A stretch of 64,000 nucleotides of DNA from Candidatus Micrarchaeia archaeon (GTDB lineage: Archaea > Micrarchaeota > Micrarchaeia > Burarchaeales > JACRGF01). The position numbers and the translations under genes were made by a program. Location: NCBI GenBank assembly GCA_038870455.1, contig JAWCPB010000002.1, positions 12,452 through 76,451 on the forward strand, in the 5' to 3' direction. Below the pieces are notes generated by a model. It saw only the letters and a list, made by a program, of their open reading frames with translations, was not told the origin of the DNA and searched no databases. Below, one piece after another: positions 33,197-49,914 of this stretch (position 1 is its first letter; each line of letters starts with the position of its first letter).

Positions 33197-33221
33197 TTAA
33201 TCCCCCGCCCGATACTCACGC

Positions 33222-34073
33222 ATGGCAGAGCTCTTCCTCGCCTTTTCGAACGCGAAGGACCTGCTCCCTCGCGCGAAGTCCATAGACTTCAAGCTCTTCC
33301 CGGACGGCGAGAGTTACGTGCGCATTCCGGTAAAGGTTTCTGGGAGGGATGTTCTTCTTGCAGAACGCTGCTGGCCCGAGCAGGACGCCGCCCTCATCCG
33401 CCTTCTCCTCGCCCTTTCGCAGCTCAAGGCGATGGGCGCGCGCCGCATCCGCTGCCTCGTTCCCTATCTTCCTTACGCCAGACAGGACAAGCGTTTTCTC
33501 GAAGGAGAGGCGCTGAGCGCGCAGACGATCTGCAGGCTCCTCAGGCTCGCCGGCTGCAGCGAGCTCGTCACGTTCGACTGCCACTTCCTGAAAAAAGAGG
33601 GGACGTTCGCCTTTGCGGGCCTGCGCATCCGAAACATCTCGCTCGCCAAGCCCCTGCTCGCCCTTTTGAGGAGGAAGGCGGGCAGGCCGGTTGTCATCTC
33701 GCCTGACGTGGGCGCGTCCTACATGGTCGAGGAGGAAAAAGAAAAGAGCGTGATGGAAAAAGTTAGAGGGGGCTACACGAAAGGGAGGCTGGCCTACAGG
33801 CGGATCGCGCGCATGGAGGCAAAGTCTGATGTGCGCGGGCGCGACGTCATCCTCATCGACGACATGGTAAGCACGGGCAGCACGATGGTCAAGGCCGTGC
33901 GGGCGCTCAGGAAAGCCGGCGCCGGGCGCGTGCTCTGCGCAGCCTCGCACGGGCTGTTTTTGGGCGGCTCGCTGCGCAGGCTGCGCGCGGCGGGCGCGGC
34001 CGAGGTTGTCGTCAGCGACAGCATCCCGGGCCCTGCGGCGCGGCTGCGCCTGCGGGAGGTGTGGTCTCCATGA
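33222..34073 (+). CDS. prs: ribose-phosphate pyrophosphokinase
   Basis: FPDGE.YVR, PYLPYARQDK, SPD.GA, IDDMVSTGST. Confidence 0.93.
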   Translation: MAELFLAFSNAKDLLPRAKSIDFKLFPDGESYVRIPVKVSGRDVLLAERCWPEQDAALIRLLLALSQLKAMGARRIRCLVPYLPYARQDKRFLEGEALSAQTICRLLRLAGCSELVTFDCHFLKKEGTFAFAGLRIRNISLAKPLLALLRRKAGRPVVISPDVGASYMVEEEKEKSVMEKVRGGYTKGRLAYRRIARMEAKSDVRGRDVILIDDMVSTGSTMVKAVRALRKAGAGRVLCAASHGLFLGGSLRRLRAAGAAEVVVSDSIPGPAARLRLREVWSP

Positions 34074-34651
34074 CAATACATGCCAAGGTAGATGGGCTCA
34101 TCCAGAAGATTTCAGAGAAATGCAGGAGGATCAGCGCGGAGAGCATGGAGGAGTTCGTCGCGGCGGTCGTCGGCGCGAAACGCGTTTTCGTCATGGGCAT
34201 GGGCAGGAGCGGGCTCGTGGCGCGTGCTTTCGCCATGCGCCTCATGCACCTGCGCCTCACCGTCTTCGTGGTTGGCGAGACGACCACGCCCGCAATTGGA
34301 AAAGGCGACCTGCTGGTCGTTGTCAGTGGCTCGGGCAGCACCAGCAGCGTGGTGGCGATAGCGAAGAAGGCCAGGGAGCTTGGGGCGCGTATCGCCTCCC
34401 TAACCTCCTACCCGGATTCTGCGGTGGGCAGGCTGAGCGATGTCATTGTGAAGATAGAGGGCAGGCTTCCCGAAAAACGGCACGACTATCCCTCGCGCCA
34501 GCTTGCGGGCGAGCACGAGCCGCTCACTCCCATGGGCACGCTGTTCGAGCTGGCGGCAATGGTTTTCCTGGACACCGTCGTAGAGGAGCTCATGCTCAGG
34601 CTGGGAAGAAGCGAGGAGGAAATGAGGCGGACGCACACCCAGCTCGAGTGA
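34070..34651 (+). CDS. hxlB: 6-phospho-3-hexuloisomerase
   Basis: G.GRSG, FAMRL.HL, GETTTP, SGSG.T, PMGTLFE. Confidence 0.93.
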   Translation: MTIHAKVDGLIQKISEKCRRISAESMEEFVAAVVGAKRVFVMGMGRSGLVARAFAMRLMHLRLTVFVVGETTTPAIGKGDLLVVVSGSGSTSSVVAIAKKARELGARIASLTSYPDSAVGRLSDVIVKIEGRLPEKRHDYPSRQLAGEHEPLTPMGTLFELAAMVFLDTVVEELMLRLGRSEEEMRRTHTQLE

Positions 34652-34654
34652 AAG

Positions 34655-35218
34655 GTGCTTCTCTTGCTCGAGCAGTTTGCGGTTGTTTTCCTCACGGTCG
34701 CTCTCGCGGAGTTCGGGGACAAGACGCAGCTCGCCGCGCTCGCGCTCGCGGCAAAATACAGGAAGCCCCTTCAAATCGCAGCGGGCTCCGCGCTCGCTTT
34801 TCTTGCCGCAACCGCGCTCGCCGTCGCGATAGGCGGGAGCTGGGGCGCCAACCTGCCAGCGCACATCATCAAAAGCGTTTCGGGCCTCGCGTTCATCGCC
34901 TTCGGCGTTCATTCCCTGCTGAGCAGGGAGAGGGAGGAGAGGGCAAGCGTTCATGCGGGCGGGAGCGCTTTCCTCGCCTCGCTCTTCCTGATCTTCACCA
35001 TGGAGATCGGCGACAAGACGAACATCGCCAACATTTTCTTCGCCTCGCTCTACAATCCCATCGTTGTTCTCGCTGCTGCGCTCACCGCGGAAGTCTTCCT
35101 CACGCTGCTCGCCGTCTTCCTCGCTCACGCTCTCTCCAAGAAAATCAGCCGCGAAAAGACGCGCGTCGCATCCGCGCTTCTCTTCATTCTCATCGGAGCC
35201 GCCGTGCTTATCTTCTAG
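34655..35218 (+). CDS. GDT1/TMEM165 (UPF0016) cation transporter
   Basis: EFGDKT and EIGDKT motifs. Confidence 0.92.
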   Translation: MLLLLEQFAVVFLTVALAEFGDKTQLAALALAAKYRKPLQIAAGSALAFLAATALAVAIGGSWGANLPAHIIKSVSGLAFIAFGVHSLLSREREERASVHAGGSAFLASLFLIFTMEIGDKTNIANIFFASLYNPIVVLAAALTAEVFLTLLAVFLAHALSKKISREKTRVASALLFILIGAAVLIF

Positions 35219-35237
35219 CCGAACTCGCTGCGCGCGC

Positions 35238-36860
35238 TCAGCCTTTCGCTTTTTTCATCGCTTCCTTCAAAAACGCGACGAACAGCGGCGCGGGCCTCTC
35301 GAGCCTGCTCTTGAACTCGGGGTGCGCCTGCGTGGCGACCCCCCACCCGCTCGGCCATTCAACGAGCTCGACTATGTCCGACTTGCCCTCGTGCGTTCCG
35401 CTCACCACGAGCCCGCTCTCCTCCAGCACCCTGACGTAGGCGGGGTTCACCTCGTAGCGATGGCGGTGCCTTTCGGTTATGAGTTCCTTGCCGTATGCCG
35501 CGAACGCCCTCGTCCCCCTCTTGAGCCTGCACGGATAGCTGCCGAGGCGCATGGTCGCGCCCTTCTCCGTGATCCGCCTCTGCTCGGGCAGGAGATCGAT
35601 GACTGGATGCTTCGTGCTGGCATCGAACTCGGTCGAGTTCGCGCCCCGCAGGCCGGCCACGTTCCTCGCCCACTCGACCACGGCGAGCTGGAGCCCCAGG
35701 CACAGGCCGAGGAAGGGAAGCCCCTTTTCCCTGGCATAGCGGATGCACTCGATTTTCCCCTCAACGCCCCTCTCGCCGAACCCCCCCGGGACGATAATCC
35801 CGTGCGCGTCGTCAAGCGCGTTCAGCCCAATCTTCTTTTCCTCAATGTCCGTGGTCTCCACCCACTTAATCCTCACTCCGCAGTCGAGGTGCGCGCCCGC
35901 ATGCACGAGCGCTTCCTTGACGCTCACGTACGCGTCGCGCAGCGCGGTGTATTTCCCCGTGAGCGCGACGGTCACGCTCGCCTTCGGCCTGCTTATCCTC
36001 TCGGTGAGAGCGCTCCATGCCTTGAGGTCGCTTTCCTTCAGCTTGAGCCCGAGCCTGTCCGCGATGAGCTTCGACACGCCCTGCTTTTCGAACAGCAGCG
36101 GCACCTCATAGACCCCCTCCACATCCGCGTCGTCTATGATCGCCTCGGGCGGCACCCCGCAGAAGAGGGATAATTTTTTCCTCGACTCCGCCGTGAGTGG
36201 CTGCACTTCCCTGCAGATTATCATCTGCGGGATGATCCCCATGCTGGCCAGCAGCTTGTTGGCGTGCTGCGTTGGCTTTGTCTTCTGCTCACCGAGCGCC
36301 TCTATGGTCGGGACGTAGGTGAGCTGGACGAACAGCACCTCCTCCTCGCCCGCGAGCTGCCTCATCGCCTCCAGGAAATAGCCGTTCTCGAGGTCGCCGA
36401 CCGTGCCCCCCACCTCGACGAGCACCACGTCAGCGTCGAAAGCGTCGCCGACGTCCCTCACCCACTTTTTAATCTCGTTGGTGAGGTGTGGCACGAACTG
36501 CACGTCGTACCCGAGGTAGCCGCCTCTCCGCTCCTTCTCGATCACCAGCTTGAATATCTTTCCTCCCGTGAGGTTGTTGCTGTTGTTCAGGTCGATGTTG
36601 AGGAACCTCTCGTAAGTCCCCAGGTCCATGTCGCACTCCGTGCCGTCATCGAGCACGAACACCTCGCCGTGCCTGTACGGGTTCATCGTGCCGCAATCCA
36701 CGTTCAGGTAGCCGTCGAACTTGACGGGCGCGACCCTGAGGCCCTTGCTCTGGAGGATGCGCCCGATGGAGGAGGTGACGATGCCTTTGCCGAGCCCGCT
36801 GAGCAGCGAGCCCACGACAACAATGTACTTGCGCTTTTTCGACCCCCCATCGGTCTGCAT
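35238..36860 (-). CDS. pyrG: CTP synthase
   Basis: SGLGKG, GEVFV.DDG.E.D.DLG, KTKPTQ, GLCLG, ERHRHRYE, HPEF. Confidence 0.98.
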   Translation of the reverse strand: MQTDGGSKKRKYIVVVGSLLSGLGKGIVTSSIGRILQSKGLRVAPVKFDGYLNVDCGTMNPYRHGEVFVLDDGTECDMDLGTYERFLNIDLNNSNNLTGGKIFKLVIEKERRGGYLGYDVQFVPHLTNEIKKWVRDVGDAFDADVVLVEVGGTVGDLENGYFLEAMRQLAGEEEVLFVQLTYVPTIEALGEQKTKPTQHANKLLASMGIIPQMIICREVQPLTAESRKKLSLFCGVPPEAIIDDADVEGVYEVPLLFEKQGVSKLIADRLGLKLKESDLKAWSALTERISRPKASVTVALTGKYTALRDAYVSVKEALVHAGAHLDCGVRIKWVETTDIEEKKIGLNALDDAHGIIVPGGFGERGVEGKIECIRYAREKGLPFLGLCLGLQLAVVEWARNVAGLRGANSTEFDASTKHPVIDLLPEQRRITEKGATMRLGSYPCRLKRGTRAFAAYGKELITERHRHRYEVNPAYVRVLEESGLVVSGTHEGKSDIVELVEWPSGWGVATQAHPEFKSRLERPAPLFVAFLKEAMKKAKG

Positions 36861-36914
36861 AGGGGTTTTTATTACAAAGTCCTTAATAAGCTTGTTCGTT
36901 CACGTCGTGGTGCG

Positions 36915-37628
36915 ATGGCCGAGGTCTGTCTCTTCGTGTGCCAGAAGAAGAAAAATCCCGCGCTCAGGCTCAAGAAGTTTCCGTTCATCAAGCTCAGCCG
37001 CTCGACGCTCGTCTTCCCGGCGGAGGCGAGGAGCGAGCTCGCCGCGCTCTCCTCGCAGGGCTCCTGGGTGCTCGAGGGGAGCTTTCCGGACGAGAAGCTG
37101 GAGGAGGCGAACGCGCGGTGGCTGGCCGAGAAGTGCATCACCCTCGAGCTCGAGGGCGAGAGGTTCGTCTCCCCGCTGCTTAAGGAGCTCGCCACGCTCG
37201 AGGCCTGGCGCGCGCACGGTGTTGCCGAGGGCGAGGAGCGCGAGTACGCGGCCCGCAGAGCCGGTTTCCTCAGCGAGTGGTCTTCCCTCTCAAAGAGGCT
37301 TTTTTCAACAAAATCAGTCGAGCAGCTCTCCTCTCGTGTGAGCTCACTGGCCGAGTTCAGGCCCTCGCCCTCTCCTTTCGCCGGAAAGCGCGACAACCTC
37401 ACCCACACGATCAGCGAGAGGTTCGAGCGCTTTCGCGAGGAGGCGCTCGCCCTCCTGCGCAGGCCACGCGAGCTGGCTGAAGTCGCTTCGCTGGCGGGGA
37501 TGAGCAAGAGCAGCGTCAGGCGGTGGCTCAAGCGCATGGAGAGGGCGGGCCTCATCGCGCGGACGAGGAGGCGCCACGGCGTCGGCCGCCCGCGCGACGT
37601 CTATTACCGCTCGATGCACATTGTTTAA
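36915..37628 (+). CDS. hypothetical protein with C-terminal winged HTH
   Basis: EVASLAGMSKSSVRRWLKRMERAGLI...GRPRDVYY. Confidence 0.7.
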   Translation: MAEVCLFVCQKKKNPALRLKKFPFIKLSRSTLVFPAEARSELAALSSQGSWVLEGSFPDEKLEEANARWLAEKCITLELEGERFVSPLLKELATLEAWRAHGVAEGEEREYAARRAGFLSEWSSLSKRLFSTKSVEQLSSRVSSLAEFRPSPSPFAGKRDNLTHTISERFERFREEALALLRRPRELAEVASLAGMSKSSVRRWLKRMERAGLIARTRRRHGVGRPRDVYYRSMHIV

Positions 37629-37654
37629 AAATCATTGGCCACTAATCTGCTTCG

Positions 37655-37855
37655 ATGGGCGAGACCACCAAAATGCTCGTGAACGCCGCACGCGTGCTCG
37701 TCGCGATAGGCGCGGGCATCCTGCTGGCCTGGTCGTGGCAGGAGTACCGCCCCATGGACAGGGAGAACTGGGGCATGCTCTTTGTGGTCTGGCTCGTGGC
37801 AACCATCGTGGTCTATCTGCTTCTGCACAAGCTGGCGAAAACCGGCCCTGACTAG
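37655..37855 (+). CDS. small two-TM protein
   Basis: Two hydrophobic helices. Confidence 0.6.
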   Translation: MGETTKMLVNAARVLVAIGAGILLAWSWQEYRPMDRENWGMLFVVWLVATIVVYLLLHKLAKTGPD

Positions 37856-38379
37856 ACCTCCTCGCATTCGGCGAGCCAGCCCAGCGCCTTCGCCCTCATC
37901 GCCGCATTCACTTCAACGAGCACCACGCCCTCGTTGGGCTGGCCGTAAATCACAATGGTCTCATCGGGCGCGCGCGCGAGCGCGACGAGCGCGGCCAAGT
38001 CCTCCTCCCCCTTCACGAAAATATTCCCCCTCCTATCTTTGAGCGCGGAAAGCAGCGCCCTCTCCATCTCCCCGCTTATCGTGCCCGCCTCGTTCCTCAC
38101 CCGCTTTGCCTTCCTCACGTGCCTCTCGATTTCCCCCCTCACCTCCTCGCTGACCGGCACGCGCAGGTTCTTGTAGTCGTAGACAAAAACGTCAGGCCGC
38201 AGGCCGTTCTTGAACAGCATGTAGCCCACGGTGTCCCCAACGGCGACAACCAGTTTGGGCTTTCTCGCCCTGAGCCTCTCCAGTGCTGCCCTTTCTGTCA
38301 GCAGCTCGCCCACTGGTTTGTGCAGCAGCTCCCTAAGGCTCTCGGGAAGCTTCTTTGCCTTCACGCGTGCCTTTCTCAA
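37852..38379 (-). CDS. GTP-dependent dephospho-CoA kinase (DUF359)
   Basis: LR..L..P.G, VGD, N.AG.I, GEEDL, YGQP.EG.V. Confidence 0.9.
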   Translation of the reverse strand: MRKARVKAKKLPESLRELLHKPVGELLTERAALERLRARKPKLVVAVGDTVGYMLFKNGLRPDVFVYDYKNLRVPVSEEVRGEIERHVRKAKRVRNEAGTISGEMERALLSALKDRRGNIFVKGEEDLAALVALARAPDETIVIYGQPNEGVVLVEVNAAMRAKALGWLAECEEV

Positions 38380-38400
38380 CCCGATTAAATAGCTTTTGTC

Positions 38401-39912
38401 TTACAGGAAATCGGAGAGCTTTGCCTGTCCCCTCTTCACCGGCCTTGCTTCCCTCGCCGCGCCCGCCTGCAGCCTCCTCATTATTCTCCTCATTTTTCTT
38501 TCCTTGCTTCGCGCGCTCCACCAGAACGCCTCGTCCCTCGTCCCCTTGGTCAGCAGCACGATCACCTCGCCCGCCTTCGCCCTGCCGGCTCTTCCCCTCC
38601 TCTGAATGCTTCTTATCTCGCTGGGGATGGGTTCGTAGAACACGACCGCATCGACGCTCGGGATGTCCAGCCCCTCCTCTCCGATCGAGCTCGCCACCAG
38701 CACACTGTGCTCGCCCGCCCTGAACCGCTCGATGGTTTCCCGCTGCTCTTTTTCGCCGACCCCCTCGCGCTTTCCCACAAAAGGCGCGGCATTCACCCCA
38801 ACCCCGCGCAGTTCCTCGACTATCCTCTTCACCTGGTCTCTGTACTGCGTGAACACGATGAGCGTCTTTCCCTGCCCGGCCCTGTCTGCAACAATTTCCT
38901 TGAGCCTGGCCATCTTCGGGTGCTCGCCGAGCTCTCCGGCCCTCTCGACCGCCCTCCTCACCCTGGCGTCGGCGAGCAGCCTGGCCACGGCCTTGCTCTT
39001 GCTCTCCCGCTCGGCCATTTTCCTGAAGAATTCCTTGAACGCGAAAGGGCTCTGCGTCTCGAGCAGCTCGAGCGCGAGCACGAGGTTGAACAGCATCGCC
39101 ACCGCAGACAGCGCCTGGAACCTCCGCCCGCTGTCGTCCTTAAGTATTTTTTCCCGCAGCTCGAGCAGCTCTTTTTTCGAAGGGCATTTTTTCCTCGCGT
39201 GCCAGTAGCCGAGCCTCTTGAGCTTGGCCACGCCTTCAGCGACAACCCCCTCGAGATCCTCCCTCGCGGCCTCGAACGCTTTGGGCAGCTCCACCTCGAC
39301 CACGCTCACCTCAAGCGGCTTCACGTAAGGCGCGACATCAGCGTCCGCCTCCGTTCTTATTTCAAAGTGCTCCGCCCCGAGCGCGGCCGCCACCTCCCTT
39401 ATCTTCTCCTCCCGTCCGCCTGGCGATGCCGTGAGCCCGAGCGCGCGCACTCCCGCTCTCCTGCACTCCTGGGCCAGCGTGGTGTATGCATAGTCGCCCA
39501 CCGTCCTGTGCGCCTCATCAAACACCACGATGGCAAAATCCTCCACCCTCATCCTGCCCGCCCGTAGGTCGTTGTGGGCCGTCTGCGGAGTCGCGGCGAT
39601 GACCCTCCCGCTCTCCCAGCTTCTCTTCTCAGCCCCTTTTTCCCCAGTCAGCAGCACAACCTCGTCCTGCCCGAGCGTGGTCAGCTCCAGCATTGTCCTC
39701 GCATGCTGCTCGGCCAGCGGCCGCGTGGGCGCAAGGATGAGCGCCCGCCCTCTCTCCCCCAAAACCTTTTCCATAACCAGAATGGCTATCAGCGTCTTTC
39801 CCAATCCGGTGGGCAGCACGACGAGCGAGCTTCCCCTCTCAGCCACTTTTCCCGCAATCGCCCGCTGGTACTCCCTGGGCTCGATTTTGTCTCTTCTCAA
39901 GAGCCACGCCAC
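38401..39912 (-). CDS. Hef/FANCM-like SF2 helicase without nuclease domain
   Basis: [34 protein letters not shown]-terminal PIP-like QAKLSDF. Confidence 0.92.
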
Positions 39913-40018
39913 GCTCTTCTTTTCCCTTCCTCCCCTATTTATTCCCAGCCCCTCGGGTGCAGCAAGCTATTTAAATGTGCGGAACCCAAGGAGAGAACCT
40001 TTTTCGTGGGTGGTGTGT

Positions 40019-40216
40019 ATGCCTGAACTCCCCTTAGCTCCCGTAGAACGCCTGATCAGGAAGGCCGGCGCCGACAGGGTTTCCGAGGATGCCGCGGCCG
40101 CACTCGCCAGCATTCTCGAGGACTATGCCGCGGTCATCAGCGCGCGCGCCGTAAAGCTCTGCAAGCACGCAGGCCGCAAGACAGTCACGGCGGACGACAT
40201 CAAGCTCGCCAAGTGA
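40019..40216 (+). CDS. archaeal histone (HMf-type)
   Basis: [20 protein letters not shown]...[24 protein letters not shown] upstream. Confidence 0.95.
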
Positions 40217-40217
40217 G

Positions 40218-41603
40218 TCAAAAGAAAAGGTCCCTCTCGCCCGCCTCAATGCGCTTGAGCCTTTTCAAAAACTCTTCCCGCTTCGTCTCTTCCACCTCTG
40301 AGGTCATCCTCCTGATGAGTTCCTCGCCCTCTTCCTTCAGCTCTGGCGTGGCGTAGTCCATCAGGAATTCTTTGAAAGTCAGCAGCGCGTTGGGCGTGCA
40401 CAGCCTGTTTATCTGGCCTGTCTTGGCGAGTTTCATGAAAGCCTGTCCTGTTCTCTTGCTCCTGTAGCACGCCGTGCAGAAGGAGGGCAGAAAGCCCTTG
40501 GCGCACACATCGGCCAGCACCTCGTGCAGGCTGCGGTGGTCGCTCAATGCAAACTGCTCGCCCACCATGCTCTTCTTACTGTAGCCGCCTGGCGATGTCC
40601 TCGAGCCGGCGCTCGCCTGGCTTATGCCAATCGCAAAAGCCTTCTCCCTGACCTCAGGCCTCTCTCTCGTGGAGATGATCATGCCGGTGTAGGGCACGGC
40701 GATGCGGTACACAGCGATGATCTTCAGGAAATCTCTGTCGCTCACCGGAAAAGGCGGTTCGAAAGAGATTCCTGCGGCCGGCCTTATCCTCGGCACGCTT
40801 ATGGTGTGCGGCCCCACACCGTACTTCTCATCCATCCACTGCGCGTGCGCGATGAGCGCGAGCACATCAAACTTGTAGTCGTACAGCCCGAGCAGCACGC
40901 CCACACCATAGTCGTCTATGCCGGCCTCGAACGCCCTGCAGTGTGCGGTGAGCTGCCTCTCATAGTCCCTCTTCAATCCCTTGTGCACTCTCTCATAAGT
41001 CGGCCGGTGGTATGTCTCCTGAAAGAGCTGGTATGTGCCAATGCCGGCCGCCTTCAGCTTTCTGTAATTCTCTGTTGTCGTGGCCGCGATGTTCACGTTC
41101 ACCCTGCGTATCTCCCCCTTCCTTTCCTTCGTTGCATAAACCGTTCGAATCGCATCCACGATGTAGTCGATAGGTGCTTTCTCGGCGTCCTCGCCAGACT
41201 CGAGCAGGAGCCTTTTGTGCCCCATGCGGATGAGCGCGCGCGTTTCCTCGGCGATTTCCTCTAGCGACAGCCGCTTTCTCTCAATGCTGGTGTTCAACGC
41301 GCTGAATCCGCAGTACGCGCACGCGTTCTTGCAGTAGTTGCTGAGATAGAGCGGAGCAAACCACACCAGCCTGTTGCCATAAATCCCGCGCTTTATTTTT
41401 GAGGACAACGCGAACATCTTGGCAAGCCCGGCCTCGCTCTCTACATTGAGCAGCCTGGCCACCTCATACAGCTCCAGGCCATTTTTCTCAGCCCCTTTTG
41501 CCAGTATTTCCTGCAGCTCGCGCTCGCTGGGCTCGCCCGCAGCCTCCTCCAGTATTCCGGTTATTCTCTGCTCGCTCACAGCCTCAAACAAATTCATGGC
41601 CAT
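40218..41603 (-). CDS. hydG: [FeFe]-hydrogenase maturase HydG
   Basis: FAPLYLSNYC.N.C.YC, GIGTYQLFQETY, GPHTISVPR, C-terminal CTAC-x22-C. Confidence 0.92.
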   Translation of the reverse strand: MAMNLFEAVSEQRITGILEEAAGEPSERELQEILAKGAEKNGLELYEVARLLNVESEAGLAKMFALSSKIKRGIYGNRLVWFAPLYLSNYCKNACAYCGFSALNTSIERKRLSLEEIAEETRALIRMGHKRLLLESGEDAEKAPIDYIVDAIRTVYATKERKGEIRRVNVNIAATTTENYRKLKAAGIGTYQLFQETYHRPTYERVHKGLKRDYERQLTAHCRAFEAGIDDYGVGVLLGLYDYKFDVLALIAHAQWMDEKYGVGPHTISVPRIRPAAGISFEPPFPVSDRDFLKIIAVYRIAVPYTGMIISTRERPEVREKAFAIGISQASAGSRTSPGGYSKKSMVGEQFALSDHRSLHEVLADVCAKGFLPSFCTACYRSKRTGQAFMKLAKTGQINRLCTPNALLTFKEFLMDYATPELKEEGEELIRRMTSEVEETKREEFLKRLKRIEAGERDLFF

Positions 41604-42661
41604 CACGCGCACACTGGCGCGGCGAACTTCGGCATCAGGTCTTTGGCGTATCCCCGGCACACCCTGCGCCCGATCCGCTCAACAAAAGCGAGCGCCTCGC
41701 CCGTCAACCTTTCGATATCTTCCTGCGCCCCAAACCTGTTGGGGTAAATCGCGTAGTCCGCGCTGTATTCCCTCGGGGTTATGTTTATCATCAGAGAGTT
41801 CGCCCCAGCGAACAGCGCCTTTCTCCTCGCGCCCGCATCCAGCGTCTCGAACGCGGTGGTCACGGGAATCCTCACCCTCTTGTAGAGCAGCCTTGCCACG
41901 GCAATCGTCCTCAGTGCCAGCCCAACATCCCCGCCCCGCTCGCCGGCCAGCGGGGTTGGCGGCGATGGCACGAAAGGCCCCACGCTCACCATGTTTGCCC
42001 CGAATTCGCCGAGCGCCAGCACATCGCGCGCCAGCCCGCCAATGCTCTGGCCGGGCAGCCCGATCATGAATCCCGTCGCAATCAGGTAGCGCAGTCGCCT
42101 CATGAACTTCAGATGCTCAATCCTCCTATCAAAGCTCGTTCCCGGCCTCATCTTTTCGAAAAGCGCGCGCGCCGTTGTCTCGAACCTGTACAGCACGCCG
42201 GCAGCGCCCGCCCGCTTGAGCTCGGCGTACTCGCTCTCGCTCCTGTCCCCGATGCTGTAGAAAAGGATGACGTTGCAGCGTTTTTTTATCCCATGCGCGA
42301 TGTCGCACAGCGTGCCGATGTCATAGCTCGGGTCCTCGCCCGACTGCAGCACGACCATCTTGTACCCGAGTTCCTTGACGGCCCAAACGACGTGCTCAAT
42401 GATGTCCTCGGCTTTCATGCGATACCTTCTCACGCGCGACTCCCTCCTTATGCCGCAGTAGAGGCAGTTGTTCCTGCACCAGTTGCTGAACTCGAGCACT
42501 CCATGCACGCACGTGGCCTTACCGACGAACTTTTCTCTCGCCGCGTCAGCGCGCGCGAACAGCTCGCCAGCCTCGCGCTCGTCGGCAGCGAGCAGCCTTG
42601 CCACAGCCTCCGGGCTCCGTTCCCCGCGCTCGAGCGACTCGAGGGCTTCGAGAAAACGCAT
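41603..42661 (-). CDS. hydE: [FeFe]-hydrogenase maturase HydE (BioB-like radical SAM)
   Basis: EFSNWCRNNCLYCGIR, VLQSGED, GANS.M.N.TP..Y...YAIY; TGATG coupled to hydG. Confidence 0.85.
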   Translation of the reverse strand: MRFLEALESLERGERSPEAVARLLAADEREAGELFARADAAREKFVGKATCVHGVLEFSNWCRNNCLYCGIRRESRVRRYRMKAEDIIEHVVWAVKELGYKMVVLQSGEDPSYDIGTLCDIAHGIKKRCNVILFYSIGDRSESEYAELKRAGAAGVLYRFETTARALFEKMRPGTSFDRRIEHLKFMRRLRYLIATGFMIGLPGQSIGGLARDVLALGEFGANMVSVGPFVPSPPTPLAGERGGDVGLALRTIAVARLLYKRVRIPVTTAFETLDAGARRKALFAGANSLMINITPREYSADYAIYPNRFGAQEDIERLTGEALAFVERIGRRVCRGYAKDLMPKFAAPVCA

Positions 42662-42706
42662 GCAGCTACAATGGCACAGCGCCTATAAAACTCTTTCTCG
42701 CCCAGT

Positions 42707-43193
42707 TCATTTTTGCCGGCTTTTCTCCAGCAGAATCCGAAACGATTTCCATGCCTTTGCGTGCGGGCAGGAGAACAGCACGACCTCATCCTCGCGCTCG
42801 ACCCGCATCAGCCTTTTCACCGCATTCACCTCCTTTTCGGAAAACCCGTAGCGGGGCGCGTTTTTGAGAAGCATGAAGCTCGTCATCCCGGTTTTTTCGC
42901 GCACGACTTCCAGCAACGCCTTCCAAGATTCTTCGTCCAACCTTCTGGCTCCCGCAAGCACCCAGCGTAAGCCACCCATTATTGCCCTTGATGATTCTGC
43001 ACCTTGTTCCGTTGAACTCGAGCTTTTCGAGCCCGCGCACCGTAACCCCGCGCACGAGCGAACACGTTTTGTACGCCGCCGGCCTGCTTCTCCTCTCGTG
43101 CTCCCTCATGAACGTCCTTTGCTGCTCGAGCCACCGTTCCCCCACCGCGCGGGCGTCCACGCAGTGTTTTGGTCTCAGCCAAAGCGTTTTCAC
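42707..43193 (-). pseudogene. frameshifted GatE GAD-insertion-like gene
   Basis: High-GC3 frame switches near 42985-42987; joined text FNGTRCRIIK-AIMGG..WVLAG...PRYGFSEKEV...EDEVVLF resembles the GatE insertion. Confidence 0.5.
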
Positions 43194-43227
43194 AATCGTT
43201 TTTTGTCCCCGTTTATTAAATCATGCC

Positions 43228-43848
43228 TTACTCGGCGTTCTTCACCACAAACCAGATGCGCTGGAGCACGGTGATGCACGCCAGCAGCGATGCGGCAGCC
43301 AACGCATACGTGAGATAGATCGGCTGCACGAACCATGCAGCCATTCCAGCAAAAACCAGAATCAGCCTCTCGGGCCTCTCGAGCACGCCACCCATCCTCC
43401 CCAGCTTTTTCTCATCCGTGACCGCCCTTCGGTGGTGCGCGTAAGCCCGCACATAGCTCGTCATGGCAGTTCCAGCAAAAAGGAGGATGGCAATCCATGC
43501 ATGCGCCGGCAGCATCCAATCGGCCACGAGGTTGGAGAACATCAATCCAAAAAGCAAGAGGGCCTCAACCACCCTGTCCATGAGCCCATCCAGAAATGCG
43601 CCCAGCCTTGTGACCGCACCGCTCATGCGCGCCACCCCGCCGTCAATCGCATCGATGACTGCAGAAAGAGCAAACAGCACGATGCCTGCGGCCAGCTGGC
43701 CATAGACCAGCGCAATAAAGCCCGCCAGCGCAGGCACCACACTCAGCAGCGTCCACTGGTTTGGCGTGAGCGGCCAGCCCGCAAAGAATATGCCCAGCCT
43801 GTTTGAAATGCGTTCAACGAAGTCAGGCAGTTCTGTTTTCACACCCAC
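43228..43848 (-). CDS. CDP-alcohol phosphatidyltransferase (archaetidylinositol-phosphate synthase-like)
   Basis: TPN, DAIDGGVAR...GAFLD..MDR, SYVRA, ER.ER. Confidence 0.9.
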   Translation of the reverse strand: MGVKTELPDFVERISNRLGIFFAGWPLTPNQWTLLSVVPALAGFIALVYGQLAAGIVLFALSAVIDAIDGGVARMSGAVTRLGAFLDGLMDRVVEALLLFGLMFSNLVADWMLPAHAWIAILLFAGTAMTSYVRAYAHHRRAVTDEKKLGRMGGVLERPERLILVFAGMAAWFVQPIYLTYALAAASLLACITVLQRIWFVVKNAE

Positions 43849-43857
43849 ACAATCGCC

Positions 43858-44952
43858 TCATCGCTCGCGCAGGCCGGCGATGAACTCCTCAAGCCTCTCC
43901 CTCGCCTCTGTGTCAGTGAATTGCTGCGGGGGATGTTTCATGAAGTAAGAAGAGGCCGAAATGAGAGCGCCGCCTATTCCCCTCTCAAGCGCCAGCTTTG
44001 CGCACCTTATCGCATCAACAACGATTCCCGCGCTGTTCGGCGAATCCTCCACGTCGAGCCTGCACTCGAGGCTGATGGGCACGTCTCCAAACTTTCTTCC
44101 CTCAATGCGAATAAAAGCCAATTTCTTGTCCTTGAGCCAAGGCACGTAATCGCTGGGGCCGATGTGAATGTCCTCGGAGTCAAGAGGCACTGGAAACTGG
44201 CTCTGCACCGCGCTTGTCTTGCTTATCTTCTTGCTCTTCAGCCTCTGCCTCTCTAGCATGTTGAGGAAGTCGGTGTTGCCCCCCACATTCAGCTGGTAGG
44301 TGCGTTCAACTTTCACGCCCCTCTCAAGGAAGAGGCGAGCGAGCGTGCGATGCAGGATTGTCGCACCCACCTGGCTCTTAATGTCGTCGCCAACAACCGG
44401 CAGCCCTTTTTCCTCAAACCTCTTCGCCCACGCCTCATCGCTTGCTATAAACACGGGCATGCAGTTGATGAACGCGCACCCTGCATCCAGTGCGGCCCGC
44501 GCATAGTACCGCACGGCCTCCTCACTGCCCACAGGCAGGTAATTGATGAGCATGTCGGCTTCAGCCTCGCGCAGCGCCTCGGCCACATCAACGGGCTTCT
44601 GGGCCGGGTCGACCAAGAAGCTGCCTCTCGTTGTTTCCGCAACGCCATCCAGCACGGGCCCCTTCTGCACAATCACGCCAGTCTTTGGGATGTTTTTGCA
44701 GAAGATCTGCGTGCAGTTCGGGGGAGAAAAAATCGCCTCACTCACGTCCCTGCCGACCTTCCGCTTGTCCACATCGAAAGCCGCCACAACCCGTATGTCG
44801 CCTATGCGGTACCCCCCGAGCACATTGTGCATGAGGCCCGGCACGCTCTCGTCGTTGCTGCTCACGTGCCTGTAATAGGTCAGCCCCTGCACGAGCGAGC
44901 TCGCGCAGTTCCCCAGACCCGCAATGGCTATCCTGATATTCCTCCTTGTCAT
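43858..44952 (-). CDS. ino1: myo-inositol-1-phosphate synthase
   Basis: [44 protein letters not shown]. Confidence 0.96.
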
Positions 44953-44993
44953 ATTTAATCCCTGTTAAACATTATTTAATAAGAATTAAATAA
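44951..44993. promoter_or_regulatory. tandem 9-4-9 palindromic operators between ino1 and padR
   Basis: TTATTTAAT-AAGA-ATTAAATAA perfect (44972-44993); ATATTTAAT-CCCT-GTTAAACAT 7/9 (44951-44972). Confidence 0.65.
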
Positions 44994-45003
44994 AAAGCTT
45001 TGC

Positions 45004-45315
45004 ATGGCAGACAAAACGCTCCCTGAGAAAAGGCTGGCGCGCGCCCTGACCACGGAGAACCTTTGGCTTTACGTGCTCTCCCTCCTGCGAAGGCGGGAGA
45101 GGTACGCCTATACCCTGAGGGACGACATCGAAAGCGAGTTCGGCTGGAAGCCGGGCCTCATTCTGAGCTATGTTGTTCTCTACAAGCTGCAGGCAGAGGG
45201 GCTCATCGCGGGCAGGCAGAGGGGCAGGAGGAAGTATTACATGATTACGGAAAAGGGACGGGCTGCACTCTCGCGCGCAAAGCGCGCGCTCTCATCACTT
45301 TCAAAAGGCTTATAA
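45004..45315 (+). CDS. PadR-family regulator
   Basis: L.LL....YAY.L, Y.VLYKL..EGLI, RKYY.ITEKG. Confidence 0.9.
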   Translation: MADKTLPEKRLARALTTENLWLYVLSLLRRRERYAYTLRDDIESEFGWKPGLILSYVVLYKLQAEGLIAGRQRGRRKYYMITEKGRAALSRAKRALSSLSKGL

Positions 45316-45337
45316 TTCATTCCGCCGAAAGCGCTTC

Positions 45338-45832
45338 ATGAAGGCGCAGGCGGCCATGGAGTACCTCATGTCCTATGGCTGGGCCATCGTCATCATTGTC
45401 GTCGCGCTGGCCGTGCTCGTCTATCTCGGCGTTTTCAGCGCGGGCGGAAAGACGCCCGACATCTGCTCTTTTCCGCCGGGCATTCAGTGCAGGAGCTTCA
45501 GGCTCGAGGTGGATGGTTCGCTCAACACAACAATCTACAATGGCCTCAGCGACAAAATCATCGTCACGGGCGTGGCCTGCACGGCCGAGCAGCCCACCGC
45601 CCAGGGCGAGCCACCGGTCTGGGAGAGCACCAATGCGAGCATCGATGCCGGCTACGCCGGCCCTGTGAATTTCGCTGCCTGCAGACTCGGCGACGGCACG
45701 ACAGCGACAGGCAAGCTGGGCGATACCTATAGAGGGCGGCTTTACATCCGCTACCATCTCCAAAGCGAGGGAAGCGCCTCCCCCCGGGTGATTAGGGGCG
45801 ACATCAGCGCGGGCATGCAGCCGGCGACCTAG
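45338..45832 (+). CDS. class III signal peptide pilin
   Basis: MKAQAAMEYLMSYGWAI..., C.FP.G..C. Confidence 0.85.
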   Translation: MKAQAAMEYLMSYGWAIVIIVVALAVLVYLGVFSAGGKTPDICSFPPGIQCRSFRLEVDGSLNTTIYNGLSDKIIVTGVACTAEQPTAQGEPPVWESTNASIDAGYAGPVNFAACRLGDGTTATGKLGDTYRGRLYIRYHLQSEGSASPRVIRGDISAGMQPAT

Positions 45833-46425
45833 CCTCTGGTGCGCGTCAGGCATCCTCTCGCTATCTCCTCATACTTGCTCTTGGGAGCCACGCGCGCGAT
45901 GGTTGCGGCCGCCTCTTCAAGAAACCGCTTGAGGAAAGCATCCTTCTCAGCGTCCATGCCGATTTTTGTGGCGGCGATGACGCACTCGAGCGCGAGCGCG
46001 GGCGCGCGCGAGAGCAGGGTGGGCTTGCCAACGCCATCCACAACGTCTGCCGTTATCGTTCCCCGTCCGCTGCCGTCCTCCTTGAACGCGAGCACCTTGC
46101 ACTGCCAGTAGGATGGCGCGCAGGAGAGCGCGGGCGCGTCGATGTCTGTCTTGCGGAATCGCTCTTTCCCGGCCTTGTCCGTGTCGAAAATGTGCGTATA
46201 GAATTCCTCAACGTCTTCGACAAAATTCAGCACGAAACATCTTCTTGCTTGAATGTTGGCGTAGGTCTGCGTCTCCCTGTAGGGGCGCACGACTATCGTC
46301 TTCAAGTCGCTCGAGTGAAAGCCCATGGGCGCGGCGTTCGCCAGCCCTTCTGGCGAGTAGGTGCTCACAATTCCCTCATAAATCCAGTCCCTTTCCATGC
46401 CGGCTTGCTTGAGGTCAACCCTCAT
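45829..46425 (-). CDS. DUF447 family protein
   Basis: YE.IVST....NAAPMG, TQTY.N, RA....LE..IAATK. Confidence 0.8.
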   Translation of the reverse strand: MRVDLKQAGMERDWIYEGIVSTYSPEGLANAAPMGFHSSDLKTIVVRPYRETQTYANIQARRCFVLNFVEDVEEFYTHIFDTDKAGKERFRKTDIDAPALSCAPSYWQCKVLAFKEDGSGRGTITADVVDGVGKPTLLSRAPALALECVIAATKIGMDAEKDAFLKRFLEEAAATIARVAPKSKYEEIARGCLTRTRG

Positions 46426-47750
46426 CCACTCTTCCTCACGAACTTCACTGCCTCACGCATTTTTCTCCTCGCCTCTTCCGCTGCCCGCAGCACGCGCGCC
46501 TCCATCGCGCTCTTCTCCCCCGGCTCTTCTTCTCCAGCCAATTTTTTAATTTTCGTATAGGCGCTTTCGCGGAACCTCGGCAGAAGAGGAACCGCGCGCC
46601 CGTCAAGCAGGAGCCGGCATTCTTTTCCCGCCGCTTTTCCAACAACAGCCGCCTTCACCCCGGCCCGCTTGAGCCTTTCGAGCGCAAGCTCCGGCTTTCG
46701 CGTAAATGCAAGAAGCGAGTCCAGCGACACACCAAGGTAATCAATGCCCTGTTCCTCCAAAAGGGCGAGCACCCGCGCGTTCACCATTTCCCTCACCTGC
46801 TTCTCTTCCAACATAAGCCCCACGCCGCTCGCCCTGCACACCTCAGCCGCATCGCCCCTCAGCCCCCCGTTCGTCACATCGAGCATGGCGTGAATGCCGG
46901 GACAGCCGGCGAGCGCTCTGCAGGCCCTGATGAAGTTGATGTTGAGCGTCTTGGCGACAACATCGTGGTGCCCCGAGAAAATCGCCGCCGTGCACACCGT
47001 GCCGCCACCCGCGCCCTCCGTCATCACAATGGCATCGCCGGGCTTCACGTTTGCTCTCGCAAACAGGTTTCTGCCCGCCACCCCAACCGCCCCCACGCAC
47101 GACACCATCCTGTCTCCTATGACCATGTCGCCGCCAACGCGGAGCGTGCTGCCCGCAACGAGCGGCACGCCCGTCAGCTCGCTCACCGTCCCGATGCCTG
47201 CTGAAAAATCGAACAGCTTGCCGACATCGCCGTCATCGGCCAGATGCAGGTCTGTGAAGAGCGCGACCGGCCTTGCCCCCTTCACGAGCACATCGCGCAG
47301 GGCGGCCCTCGTGACGTGAAAGCCTGCCAGAAAGGGCCATTCGCTGAGGCGCGAGTGCGTTCCATCCACCGACACGACAATCGTGTTGCGGCCGGCCTTC
47401 ACCGCTCCCGCGTCATCCAGCGCGCCCGGTCCGAGCGCCGTTTTTCCGCTGGCGAATCCAGCGAGCAGCCTGTGCACGAAAAAATCGCCCGTTCCCCTGC
47501 TGCCCACGCCCATCGCGCCCATGCTGACTCCGCTCCTCGGGCAGGAGAGCAGGCGTGCGAGCCAGGAGCTGCGCGGTTTTTTGTTCGACAGCACCACTTC
47601 GTCAAACACGGCCGCCGCAATGGCACTCGCCCGCGCGCGGTCGATGCCCTTTATCGCTGCGATGAGCCTGGCCATGCCGGCCTCCGCCTTCGCCCTCTCC
47701 TCCCCTTTCGCGAGGGCCCTTCTCGCAAAACCCTCAAGATCCACGCACAC
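46422..47750 (-). CDS. AIR synthase (PurM/HypE-like) archaeal protein
   Basis: GVGSRG.GDFFVH, DDAG, DGTHSRLS, DVTNGGLRGDA, P.FRES.YT. Confidence 0.85.
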   Translation of the reverse strand: MCVDLEGFARRALAKGEERAKAEAGMARLIAAIKGIDRARASAIAAAVFDEVVLSNKKPRSSWLARLLSCPRSGVSMGAMGVGSRGTGDFFVHRLLAGFASGKTALGPGALDDAGAVKAGRNTIVVSVDGTHSRLSEWPFLAGFHVTRAALRDVLVKGARPVALFTDLHLADDGDVGKLFDFSAGIGTVSELTGVPLVAGSTLRVGGDMVIGDRMVSCVGAVGVAGRNLFARANVKPGDAIVMTEGAGGGTVCTAAIFSGHHDVVAKTLNINFIRACRALAGCPGIHAMLDVTNGGLRGDAAEVCRASGVGLMLEEKQVREMVNARVLALLEEQGIDYLGVSLDSLLAFTRKPELALERLKRAGVKAAVVGKAAGKECRLLLDGRAVPLLPRFRESAYTKIKKLAGEEEPGEKSAMEARVLRAAEEARRKMREAVKFVRKSG

Positions 47751-48405
47751 ACCTCACAAAACCCTTCCACCCGCGCCGCGTTGCCAGATTGAATACATCA
47801 GCCCTCTCCCTTCTCAGCAGGCCGATGAGCCTCCTCGCCACGCCGTGCTTTGTGCCCCTGAAGTCAATCCCGACAAAACCGATGGGGCTCGCGCCAAAAG
47901 CCCGTGCCAGGAAGACGCACCTGTCCCCGTCAGTGAATCCACCAAAGTTGTACACGCGCCCTTTTGGTTCCACCTGCGTTGTGCCGATGAGCTTGCACCC
48001 TCGCAATAACCGCAGCGCCCCACTCAGTTTGCCGATGTTGTCACCGTGTGCGTGAATCACTATAACAGCGCCTCTCTCGCCCGCCTCCCTTATTGCCTCC
48101 ATCCTTCCGTCCAAGTCCGTGCATACAACATCTGGAACAATGCCATTTTCCAGCAGCGTTTGGGTCGCGCCGTCCGCGGCAATCACCACGCAGGGATGGA
48201 CGAGCATTATGCTGTTTCTCATTCCGCGCGCGTTCCCAAAAACGATTGCCGGCTTGCCTTGAAGGAACAGCAACAACTCCTTCCCACCTCTCACCATCTT
48301 TGTAAGCGCATCGCGCGCCCTCTCATCCCTATCGAAATTCAGGCGAAGGGGAGCGAGCTGCCTCTTTATCCTCTCATATTCCTTCATCCATGCACCGAGC
48401 TCCAT
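47734..48405 (-). CDS. mptE: 6-hydroxymethyl-7,8-dihydropterin pyrophosphokinase (MptE-like)
   Basis: AADGA, PD.V.TDLDG, HAHGDN, GTTQ, NFGGFTDGDR. Confidence 0.9.
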   Translation of the reverse strand: MELGAWMKEYERIKRQLAPLRLNFDRDERARDALTKMVRGGKELLLFLQGKPAIVFGNARGMRNSIMLVHPCVVIAADGATQTLLENGIVPDVVCTDLDGRMEAIREAGERGAVIVIHAHGDNIGKLSGALRLLRGCKLIGTTQVEPKGRVYNFGGFTDGDRCVFLARAFGASPIGFVGIDFRGTKHGVARRLIGLLRRERADVFNLATRRGWKGFVRCVRGS

Positions 48406-49870
48406 AGATTCCCCACTCCATCGGCTCGTCCTGCACATAGCTCTTGCGCAGCAGGAGACACAGCTCCGCCTTCGCCAGCTCCCTGCCAAGATAAACCGCG
48501 TGTTCTTTGGAGATTTTCACCCTCCCGTCCCTAGCGATTGCGATTCCAACCTCCCTCGCGTTTTTCCCAGTAAAGAGAATCCTCCGCCCGCCTTCTTCCC
48601 ACACCGCGTTTATTCTGTCCGAGAGGAATATTCTGAAGCTTCCTCTGTCGTACTTCGGCCTGGCCTCCTCCGCCTCGACAACTTCGTCGGCGGAAATCGC
48701 CACGCTCGGCAGCTCTCTCTTTTCCTTGAGCGCCAGCACGCTGAACCCCAAGTCTTTCGGAACCGCTCTTCTCTCCCTCGCCACGCACAGCAGCCTCGCC
48801 GCAGCAGCCAGCTCCCTCACACTCCCTCTTGCCTTTGGGCTTTTCTCAGGCGCAAACAGAAACTCAACGCCAATCTCGCTGGCAAAGCCCGCAAGCAGCG
48901 CGTTCATCCCCACGCTGTCCGCATCGAATAGTTCAACGACATTTCCAACGCCCATCATGAGCGGCACGCCCGGATTCCTCTGTCTGAAATGATGATAGGC
49001 GAGCAGCGAGTCGGCAAAGCCCGCGCCCACGGGCTCGAGAATGGAGTCGGCGATGAACTTCTCGAAACCCATCTTCTTCAGCTTCTGCCCGGCCTCCTCA
49101 AGCCACTCCACTTTTTCCCAAATTCCTTTCGCAATCCTCCCGCCTTTTCCCGGAATCACCACGCACGGGATGCCGAGCGAGGGCGCGAGCTCTATGCTGT
49201 CGAGCGTGAGGCTGAGGAGAAGGTCCGCCCCCGCATCCGCCGCAGCCGCAAGCTCCTTCTCGTGCATCGAATCCACGCTCACCGGAAGCCCGCTTTTCCC
49301 AGCCGCTTTCACCAGCCTTTCAATCTCCCCGGAATTATCCTCGTTGGCAACCATCCCGATGTCTATCACGCTCGCGCCCTCCCGTTTGAAGTACTCGGCC
49401 CGCGCGGCCACCTCCTCATCGCTCATTCTCGGGGCGTCGACGATCTCGCCGATCACGCGCATTGTTCCTCCAATCCGCAGCCTGCCCCACACATTCCCTT
49501 TTCTCTCGGCCTCTGCGACAACCCGCGCGGCTTCCTCGGCCATCTCCCTTGCGTGCAGCTTCTCTGCCGGAACATCTTTGGACAGCGCGAGCCCTCTCGC
49601 AATCACCCACGGCAGGTCGCCGATGTGTGTGGGACCACGGAAGCATGGAATTCCCACGCGCCTCTCAAGCTCGCGCACATCAAAATTCACTCCGCCCGGC
49701 AGAATCACGCGCTCGTAGTTACTCAAATCAATCAGTCTGAGCTGTTCCTCAACGAGCGCCAGCGGAAGCAGCGCCGCCACTCCCCACTCGCACACAAGGT
49801 AATCAACGCCCGGAACGGGCCTGGCCGCGCGCGCGGCGTCCCTGGCGGTCACGGCGAGCGTCCTTCCCAT
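48374..49870 (-). CDS. dihydropteroate synthase-like protein (archaeal type, DUF4346 C-terminus)
   Basis: EIVDAP, GA..IDIG, SVDS, G.GNV.EL.DADS.G.N, PKDLG, HAVYLGREL.KAE. Confidence 0.85.
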   Translation of the reverse strand: MGRTLAVTARDAARAARPVPGVDYLVCEWGVAALLPLALVEEQLRLIDLSNYERVILPGGVNFDVRELERRVGIPCFRGPTHIGDLPWVIARGLALSKDVPAEKLHAREMAEEAARVVAEAERKGNVWGRLRIGGTMRVIGEIVDAPRMSDEEVAARAEYFKREGASVIDIGMVANEDNSGEIERLVKAAGKSGLPVSVDSMHEKELAAAADAGADLLLSLTLDSIELAPSLGIPCVVIPGKGGRIAKGIWEKVEWLEEAGQKLKKMGFEKFIADSILEPVGAGFADSLLAYHHFRQRNPGVPLMMGVGNVVELFDADSVGMNALLAGFASEIGVEFLFAPEKSPKARGSVRELAAAARLLCVARERRAVPKDLGFSVLALKEKRELPSVAISADEVVEAEEARPKYDRGSFRIFLSDRINAVWEEGGRRILFTGKNAREVGIAIARDGRVKISKEHAVYLGRELAKAELCLLLRKSYVQDEPMEWGIYGARCMDEGI

Positions 49871-49914
49871 GCCCCCCCACAAACTCTTTATTCGTGCTTT
49901 ATTCTATTAATCTT

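Follow-up and report, generated by a model that had tools for sequence, protein, structure and literature searches.

A pair of adjacent genes encoding two radical S-adenosylmethionine (SAM) enzymes, HydG and a HydE-like protein, was identified in a 64,000-nucleotide stretch of DNA (hereafter the window) from a Candidatus Micrarchaeia archaeon (assembly GCA_038870455.1, contig JAWCPB010000002.1, positions 12,452 to 76,451 of the forward strand). HydG uses a SAM radical to cleave tyrosine and so produces an Fe(Cys)(CO)2(CN) synthon, on which HydE acts. From sequence comparisons we consider it probable that the two genes form a module for maturing the [NiFe] hydrogenase encoded in the same genome, their products making the Fe-CO/CN unit of this enzyme. 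This client is favoured because HydA and HydF are missing, an intact [NiFe] hydrogenase is present and the usual Hyp maturases were not detected; it is also favoured by co-occurrence across genomes, physical linkage elsewhere, the type of the HydE, the clade of the HydG, the likeness of the hydrogenase large subunits and purifying selection on both genes. We infer both the client and the chemical steps proposed below. The pair is an archaeal, unfused (HypC-less) and dispersed variant of a module in which HydE is usually fused to HypC and stands beside HydG, and its HydE has a tail of its own.

The genome (G000) is a metagenome-assembled genome (MAG) of the Micrarchaeota, 1.04 Mb in 51 contigs and 90% complete, with the pair on contig C2. 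It was compared with a genome of the same genus (G001, 95% complete), one of the same family (G002, 89% complete) and the locus of a congener MAG (L020).

HydG and its HydE-like partner

The gene downstream in the pair encodes a standard HydG by score, motifs and alignment. The protein passes the curated equivalog cut-off of TIGR03955 (540.2 bits; cut-off 312.15) and stays below that of ThiH (TIGR02351; 309 bits, cut-off 380), confirming the initial annotation, which had separated it from ThiH. It carries the Pfam domains Radical_SAM and BATS and matches the HydG structure 4WCX along its whole length (532.7 bits, residues 8-461), compared with 193.8 bits for the solved ThiH 7PD1. The SAM motif, the GPH segment with the dangler-iron histidine and the C-terminal CX2CX22C were all found where the initial annotation had read them (Table 1). 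Like ThiH/NosL-type tyrosine or tryptophan lyases, the protein has a radical-SAM tyrosine-lyase core; unlike ThiH, it has the C-terminal CX2CX22C. In an alignment of 81 HydGs, 125 columns are conserved to 95% or more, and the window HydG agrees with all 125.

In the HydG alignment, no column is diagnostic between HydGs from [FeFe] and [NiFe] contexts, and 150 conserved columns are common to both; the HydG tree likewise mixes the two contexts. The window HydG lies inside a well-supported (starred) Micrarchaeota clade of 11 sequences. Three of these form a trio (the window, L020 and L021); among the other eight, seven adjoin a fused HypC-HydE, and HydA occurs in none of their genomes.

The HydE-like protein scores best against TIGR03956, where its 233.8 bits fall slightly short of 254.6, the threshold for the canonical HydE equivalog. 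Scores for PylB (139.6 bits; cut-off 348.2), BioB (81.4; cut-off 225) and HmdB (69.4; cut-off 320.9) are also below threshold, and the grouping with ThiH or BioB that would have spoken against the initial annotation was not found. The protein aligns with Thermotoga maritima HydE (7O1O) over residues 5-337 at 245.7 bits, while PylB gives 98. Like T. maritima HydE, it aligns over the length of the fold and keeps R159, E161, T268, T269, A270, M291, Y303 and Y306. The last two form the YxxY near the C-terminus that the initial annotation had seen in a gene coupled to hydG by a TGATG overlap, and the overlap too is present.

The residues that set this protein apart from canonical HydE are those of another group. 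Four columns are fixed differently in canonical and HypC-fused HydEs (Arg/His at 53, Arg/Gly at 155, Gly/Ser at 226 and Val/Ser at 289), and the window HydE has the fused state at all four. At position 53, His was found in 46 of 47 fused-clade HydEs and in 3/3 of the trio, and Arg in 11/11 canonical HydEs. A new cysteine at position 51 has the same distribution (46/47 fused, 3/3 trio, 0/11 canonical), canonical proteins having H, Y or W there. In the HydE tree, the 11 canonical sequences, each with HydF or HydA beside it or in the same genome, split from a 50-sequence clade of fused forms plus the window trio with a Shimodaira-Hasegawa-like approximate likelihood ratio (SH-aLRT) support of 100. 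When the tree is rooted on HydG, the trio and the fused forms make a clade with support 95, and in the careful HydE tree the canonical group and the trio are separate units. Thus, the window HydE appears to group with the [NiFe]-associated type, a clade normally fused to HypC.

Fusion to HypC is widespread among its relatives: among the 120 top database relatives of the window HydE, 104 contain a PF01455 (HypC) domain, and at 41 of 80 HydG loci the HydE begins with the HypC signature MC..IP. The window HydE starts with MRFLEALESLE, without an N-terminal HypC, and the HydEs of L020 and L021 are likewise unfused. All 8 of the closest unfused database relatives (P0003-P0010) end in a VCRG(Y/W)...AP(V/A)C tail. 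Both tail cysteines are present in 3/3 of the trio and in 0/47 fused HydEs. The unfused lineage, whose evolution has been fast, has acquired this Cys pair as a feature of its own. The HypC-HydE clade is not a curated family. Its fused members (P0011-P0122) carry the public names '[FeFe] hydrogenase H-cluster radical SAM maturase HydE' or 'biotin synthase'; most sampled genomes with this fused type have no HydA.

Both genes are under strong purifying selection. Compared with the congener L020, the ratio of nonsynonymous to synonymous substitution rates (dN/dS) is 0.05 for hydG and 0.09 for hydE, and 0.04 to 0.16 for neighbouring genes. The synonymous divergence (dS) is 0.15-0.22 for hydE/hydG and 0.55-0.82 for the neighbouring genes, in keeping with a block of high nucleotide identity around the pair (Table 1). 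The cassette itself is 93-98% identical to that of L020 in nucleotides. A recent exchange of sequence between the lineages of G000 and L020 could explain the block, as could constraint acting on synonymous positions. We also considered a joint sweep of hydE-hydG and the hydrogenase genes. Between G000 and G001, identity is 88% for the hydrogenase stretch on contig C18 and 82-93% for the genes around it, so that the hydE-hydG block has no counterpart there, and no conclusion was drawn.

Hydrogenase and maturation genes in the genome and its relatives

HydA (PF02906) was found in none of G000, G001 and G002, and a HydF (TIGR03918) above the cut-off in none of them either. The initial annotation had noted that hydF and hydA are absent from the window, and the search of the whole genome extends this. 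Weak HydF candidates in G000 and the micrarchaeal genome G011 (34-49 bits, GTPase domain only) proved to be FeoB, with a DtxR/FeoA-type gene upstream.

Instead of an [FeFe] hydrogenase, the genome encodes a minimal [NiFe] hydrogenase cassette on contig C18, composed of a small subunit, a large subunit and a convergent protease. The large subunit (430 aa) ends in a short C-terminal extension; its RICGTCSIAH and DPCMSCASH motifs are intact and include the four conserved cysteines. The small subunit is short and matches only the NuoB-like Oxidored_q6 domain; the protease, of 147 aa, is short and HycI-like. Cassettes of this type also occur in G004 (L122), in G227 (L129) and partly in G017 (L123). 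Directly after the cassette in G227 lies a gene for a 214-aa membrane protein with an HSFDADH motif (L129:10624-11268), which looks nickel permease-like by eye and has no Pfam match.

HypD and HypB were not found in G000, and HypE and HypF gave weak superfamily matches only (HypE 51 bits, cut-off 252; HypF 32 bits, cut-off 466). The HypE candidate, an AIR-synthase-like open reading frame (ORF) at 46422-47750 of the window, reached 50.6 bits on HypE (cut-off 251.6) and 59 on ThiL, and was rejected. A HypA-like ORF lies on another contig of the genome (C14:5688-5891; L124:1450-1743). It scores 28.9 bits, which equals the Pfam cut-off, comprises the N-terminal domain only, starts with MRE and not MHE, and lacks the zinc-site cysteines.

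In other genomes HydG is repeatedly found beside [NiFe] hydrogenase genes. We took 80 HydG loci with 8-kb flanks, clustered all ORFs and named the clusters by Pfam. The recurrent neighbours are the [NiFe] large subunit (21 loci), the small subunit (20), an FAD/NAD gamma subunit (14), a 4Fe-4S beta subunit (11) and the HycI protease (11), along with HydF (15) and HypA (8); no recurrent cluster corresponds to HypC, D, E or F. At one locus (L041), HypC-HydE, HydG, the small subunit and the large subunit are contiguous on the same strand. The C18 large subunit is 46% identical to the one there and 54% and 49% identical to those of L063 and L085, all three of which adjoin HypC-HydE and HydG. Within the same family as the window, G002 encodes a fused HypC-HydE of 426 aa.

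The same association is seen at the level of genomes. A match to the [NiFe] large subunit occurs in 41 of the 50 genomes whose HydGs are closest, HydA in 7 and HypD in one. The 9 genomes that have no [NiFe] match include six of the 7 with HydA, so that 47 of the 50 have one or the other kind of hydrogenase. HydA together with HydF occurs in only 2 of the 18 DPANN genomes with close HydG relatives. HypD among the 41 nearest relatives is confined to one family, in which 6/6 sampled genomes have it.

Of 201 sampled Micrarchaeota genomes, 12 yielded a HydG, in agreement with the initial annotation, which had described such maturases as rare in archaea. An [NiFe] large-subunit match occurs in 69 of the 201 and covers both halves in about 60 of these; HypD was found in none of the 201. 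Such a match is present in 11 of the 12 genomes with HydG, compared with 58 of the 189 without (Fisher p = 4e-5, with no correction for kinship), and the sole HydG genome without one (G146) has HydA. The single matches of about 390 aa could be mistaken for NuoD, but at least in G043 and G048 they are real group-4-type large subunits, with RTCGICSQCH and DPCISCMER motifs. In G043 the NuoB-like small subunit of this group-4-type membrane [NiFe] hydrogenase (L126:1229-3295, 688 aa) contains a Pfam intein with a LAGLIDADG endonuclease, and its homologue in G048 (L127:1303-3162, 619 aa) is similar in look.

Proposed role and competing explanations

Textbook assembly of [NiFe] hydrogenases requires HypC, HypD, HypE and HypF, and the anoxic source of the CO ligand has long been unsettled. 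In the archaeon studied here, HydG would cleave tyrosine with a SAM radical and build an Fe-CO/CN unit on its C-terminal cluster, as established HydGs do. A HydE with an altered pocket (Arg53 to His, Arg155 to Gly, and the new Cys51) could then accept the synthon, remove its cysteine and supply the apo form of the C18 large subunit with a mononuclear Fe(CO)x(CN)y fragment, instead of forming a di-iron precursor. Release of a mononuclear fragment is proposed because the HydE pocket is changed and because this type of HydE is usually fused to HypC, an iron chaperone. Nickel insertion and cleavage of the C-terminal extension by the short HycI-like protease would follow. In this genus, which is without HypC, the hand-off might be direct or run via the C-terminal Cys pair of HydE; that this lineage-specific pair substitutes for HypC is speculation. 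A bolder proposition, which we put forward tentatively and regard as possible, is that the whole Fe(CO)(CN)2 centre of an archaeal [NiFe] hydrogenase could be made by the two radical-SAM enzymes without any of HypC, D, E or F, HydG supplying tyrosine-derived CO and CN on iron and HydE, with its Cys51/His53 pocket and C-terminal Cys pair, handing the fragment directly to the large subunit.

The pair resembles three known systems to different degrees. Its HydG is a full member of the HydE/HydF/HydG system of H-cluster maturation (TIGR03956, TIGR03918 and TIGR03955; structures 4WCX and 7O1O/3CIX). Unlike that system, the genome has neither HydF nor HydA, and its HydE is below the family cut-off and outside the canonical clade. 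With the HypC-HydE and HydG modules of [NiFe] operons it shares the HydE clade, all five signature residues (Cys51, His53, Gly155, Ser226 and Ser289), HydG as the immediate neighbour, an [NiFe] hydrogenase in the genome and the lack of HypD, E and F. Unlike those modules, it has no fused or free HypC, has the Cys335/Cys351 tail and the TGATG overlap of hydE and hydG, and lies on a different contig from the hydrogenase, in an archaeal host. In canonical [NiFe] maturation, HypC, HypD, HypE and HypF build Fe(CN)2CO, and HypA and HypB insert nickel, as outlined in PMC9431212. The presumed product and client would be the same here: an Fe(CN)2(CO) site in a four-cysteine large subunit whose extension is removed by a protease. 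In contrast to that pathway, HypC, HypD and HypB were not found in the genome, HypE and HypF have weak matches only, the HypA-like ORF lacks its cysteines, and cyanide would come from tyrosine and not from carbamoyl phosphate.

Several observations weigh against a role in [NiFe] hydrogenase maturation. In other lineages the link is persuasive because of the carrier HypC, which this genome lacks: a PF01455 search of G000 found none, and our own hidden Markov model, built from 13 fused HypC domains, gave a best E of 0.54 across all six-frame pieces (of at least 25 aa) of the genome. The pair on C2 is unlinked to the hydrogenase genes on C18. HydG is present in only 10 of the approximately 60 Micrarchaeota genomes with a two-part large-subunit match, and about 50 of these genomes have neither HydG nor HypD, so HydG and HydE cannot be regarded as necessary for this hydrogenase type. 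Two genomes (G004 and G227) hold a C18-type cassette without HydG, the large subunit of G004 being 55% identical to that of C18. These lineages either have a third way of maturation, depend on a partner or have a hydrogenase that needs less than thought, and a second puzzle is thereby exposed, as most Micrarchaeota with this hydrogenase show no known maturation genes. Within the family, the HydG beside the fused HypC-HydE of G002 is only 51% identical to the window HydG, and the G002 module is therefore not the direct ancestor of the pair. The HydE tree placement alone is not decisive, since the trio sits on a long branch (0.64-0.77) and an approximately unbiased (AU) test does not reject its grouping with canonical HydE (p 0.42); the residue signatures lend the [NiFe]-type placement independent support. 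Finally, HydG yields two CO and one CN, and the [NiFe] site needs one CO and two CN. Neither this mismatch nor the nickel step is accounted for by the proposed steps.

The initial annotation had offered two readings, and the first of these, H-cluster maturation with dispersed genes, is not supported by the data. It would require hydA and hydF to have fallen into the 10% of the genome that is not assembled, or to have diverged beyond detection, and we regard it as improbable. In its favour, the window HydG is indistinguishable from HydGs of [FeFe] contexts, HydA does occur together with HydG in other Micrarchaeota (G011, G003, G057, G058 and G146), and most archaeal genomes with [FeFe] hydrogenases have incomplete maturase sets, according to a survey (PMC11216029). 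Against this stand the absence of HydA and HydF from three genomes of the family, 43 of the 50 closest-HydG genomes being without HydA, the non-canonical type of the window HydE, and the ability of the Pfam model to pick up the HydAs of those other Micrarchaeota. The second reading, a HydF-independent use of Fe(CO)2CN-Cys chemistry, pointed in the right direction; it left the client unnamed, and the evidence now points to the [NiFe] hydrogenase on C18.

Other uses of the same chemistry have to be weighed with it. The pair might make an Fe-CO/CN species, free CO or CN, or just the products of tyrosine cleavage for a client other than an [NiFe] hydrogenase, which could be a metalloenzyme yet to be recognized, the host cell, on which the archaeon presumably depends, or some other function not yet defined. 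The lack of linkage and of HypC, the many Micrarchaeota that have the same hydrogenase and do without HydG, and the fast evolution of the unfused HydE with its new Cys-pair tail would all suit such a client. We nevertheless consider it rather unlikely, given that no alternative client is visible, that the clade of both genes is tied to [NiFe] genes by HypC fusion and operon position, and that nearly all of the closest-HydG genomes (47/50) have an [NiFe] or [FeFe] hydrogenase. Loss of the HypC domain, the frameshift in the ORF upstream of hydE and the long HydE branch could also be taken as signs of decay, the pair being a remnant with no current function, left once HypC, and perhaps a former [FeFe] system, had been lost. 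Both frames are intact, however, with all catalytic motifs kept and low dN/dS in both genes, and conservation of the cassette exceeds that of the housekeeping genes around it, which makes decay highly improbable.

Among the papers listed by our literature searches, none describes HydG or HydE as acting in the maturation of [NiFe] hydrogenases. The Cell 2024 survey screened archaeal genomes for HydE, HydF and HydG, reports the full set in only 5 of 130 genomes with [FeFe] hydrogenases, and discusses an alternative [FeFe] maturation pathway; the portion of its text available to us does not mention maturases in archaea that lack hydrogenase A (PMC11216029). If HydG and HydE do serve the [NiFe] hydrogenase, the two great families of hydrogenases would share their ligand-making chemistry, many orphan HydG and HydE genes named as [FeFe] maturases in databases would be mis-assigned, and the hydrogen metabolism inferred for archaea and bacteria with small genomes would gain a real maturation route. 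If the two enzymes also suffice without HypC, D, E and F, they would be the smallest known hydrogenase maturation system, and tyrosine would be a possible source of the CO ligand in anaerobic [NiFe] hydrogenases. Two genes without a carrier domain are the most stripped-down version of the module and thus a convenient test case for reconstitution.

The locus and its assembly

The features of the locus are collected in Table 1. The order within the pair is hydE, then hydG. A longer hydG ORF is possible (40218..41660, minus strand, 480 aa from a GTG), with the ATG at 41603 in the same frame. The pair stands between a histone gene and lipid genes, as the initial annotation had it.

Table 1. Features of the hydE-hydG locus and of the hydrogenase cassette (window positions unless a contig is given)
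Feature	Position	Strand	Basis or remark
hydG, radical-SAM tyrosine lyase, 461 aa from ATG at 41603	40218..41603	-	TIGR03955; 4WCX alignment
HydG radical-SAM cluster motif C91-X3-C95-X2-C98 (CKNACAYC)	41310..41333	-	regex on translation; coordinates computed from residue numbers
HydG G264-P-H266 segment	40806..40814	-	regex; aligns with GVGPHTISVPR of 4WCX
HydG C-terminal auxiliary-cluster motif C376-X2-C379-X22-C402	40398..40478	-	regex; conserved in 4WCX alignment
hydE-like radical-SAM gene, 352 aa, probable [NiFe]-associated HydE type without N-terminal HypC	41603..42661	-	TIGR03956; 7O1O; clade; residues
HydE radical-SAM motif C62-X3-C66-X2-C69 (CRNNCLYC)	42455..42478	-	regex on translation
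HydE Cys51-Val-His53, signature of the [NiFe]-associated clade	42503..42511	-	residue comparison
HydE C-terminal tail, Cys335 and Cys351 (VCRGY...APVC)	41609..41659	-	specific to the unfused lineage
TGATG, overlap of hydE stop and hydG start (translational coupling)	41601..41605	-	sequence reads ...GCGCGTGATGGCCAT
High-identity block to L020	40250..43000		90-98% nucleotide identity, ~69-88% in flanks; sliding identity in 250-base steps
Archaeal histone	40022-40216	+	PF00808, 65.9 bits
Orphan ORF directly upstream of hydE, split by a frameshift (42786-43193 and 42707-42979)	42707-43193	-	157-aa single frame in L020
CDP-alcohol phosphatidyltransferase	43228-43848	-	flank of the pair
myo-inositol-1-phosphate synthase	43858-44952	-	flank of the pair
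Minimal [NiFe] hydrogenase cassette (small subunit, large subunit, convergent protease)	G000 contig C18:8192-10504 (loci L104/L105)		outside the window

The gene for an AIR-synthase-like protein of 442 aa, with weak ThiL, HypE and SelD matches of 46-59 bits, stands beside one for a DUF447 flavin-reductase-like protein (45829-47750, minus strand), at a distance of 4 kb from hydE-hydG; neither gene recurs at other HydG loci. The orphan ORF directly upstream of hydE was considered as a hidden HypC or carrier. It matched no Pfam or NCBIfam family, its atlas model has a predicted local distance difference test (pLDDT) score of 0.46 with no credible relative, and its dN/dS against L020 is 0.73 over 84 codons, almost neutral. 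Together with the frameshift, these results led us to leave it out of the mechanism, and its membership of the hydE-hydG module is doubtful.

The initial annotation had asked for a check of contig integrity. A chimeric segment was ruled out, as contigs from another assembler (run X1) span the histone-hydG, hydG-hydE and hydE-upstream junctions at an even depth of 8.5-9.8. The second MAG of the genus (L020) is colinear with the window over 18 kb (32154-50146), which also speaks against a chimera.

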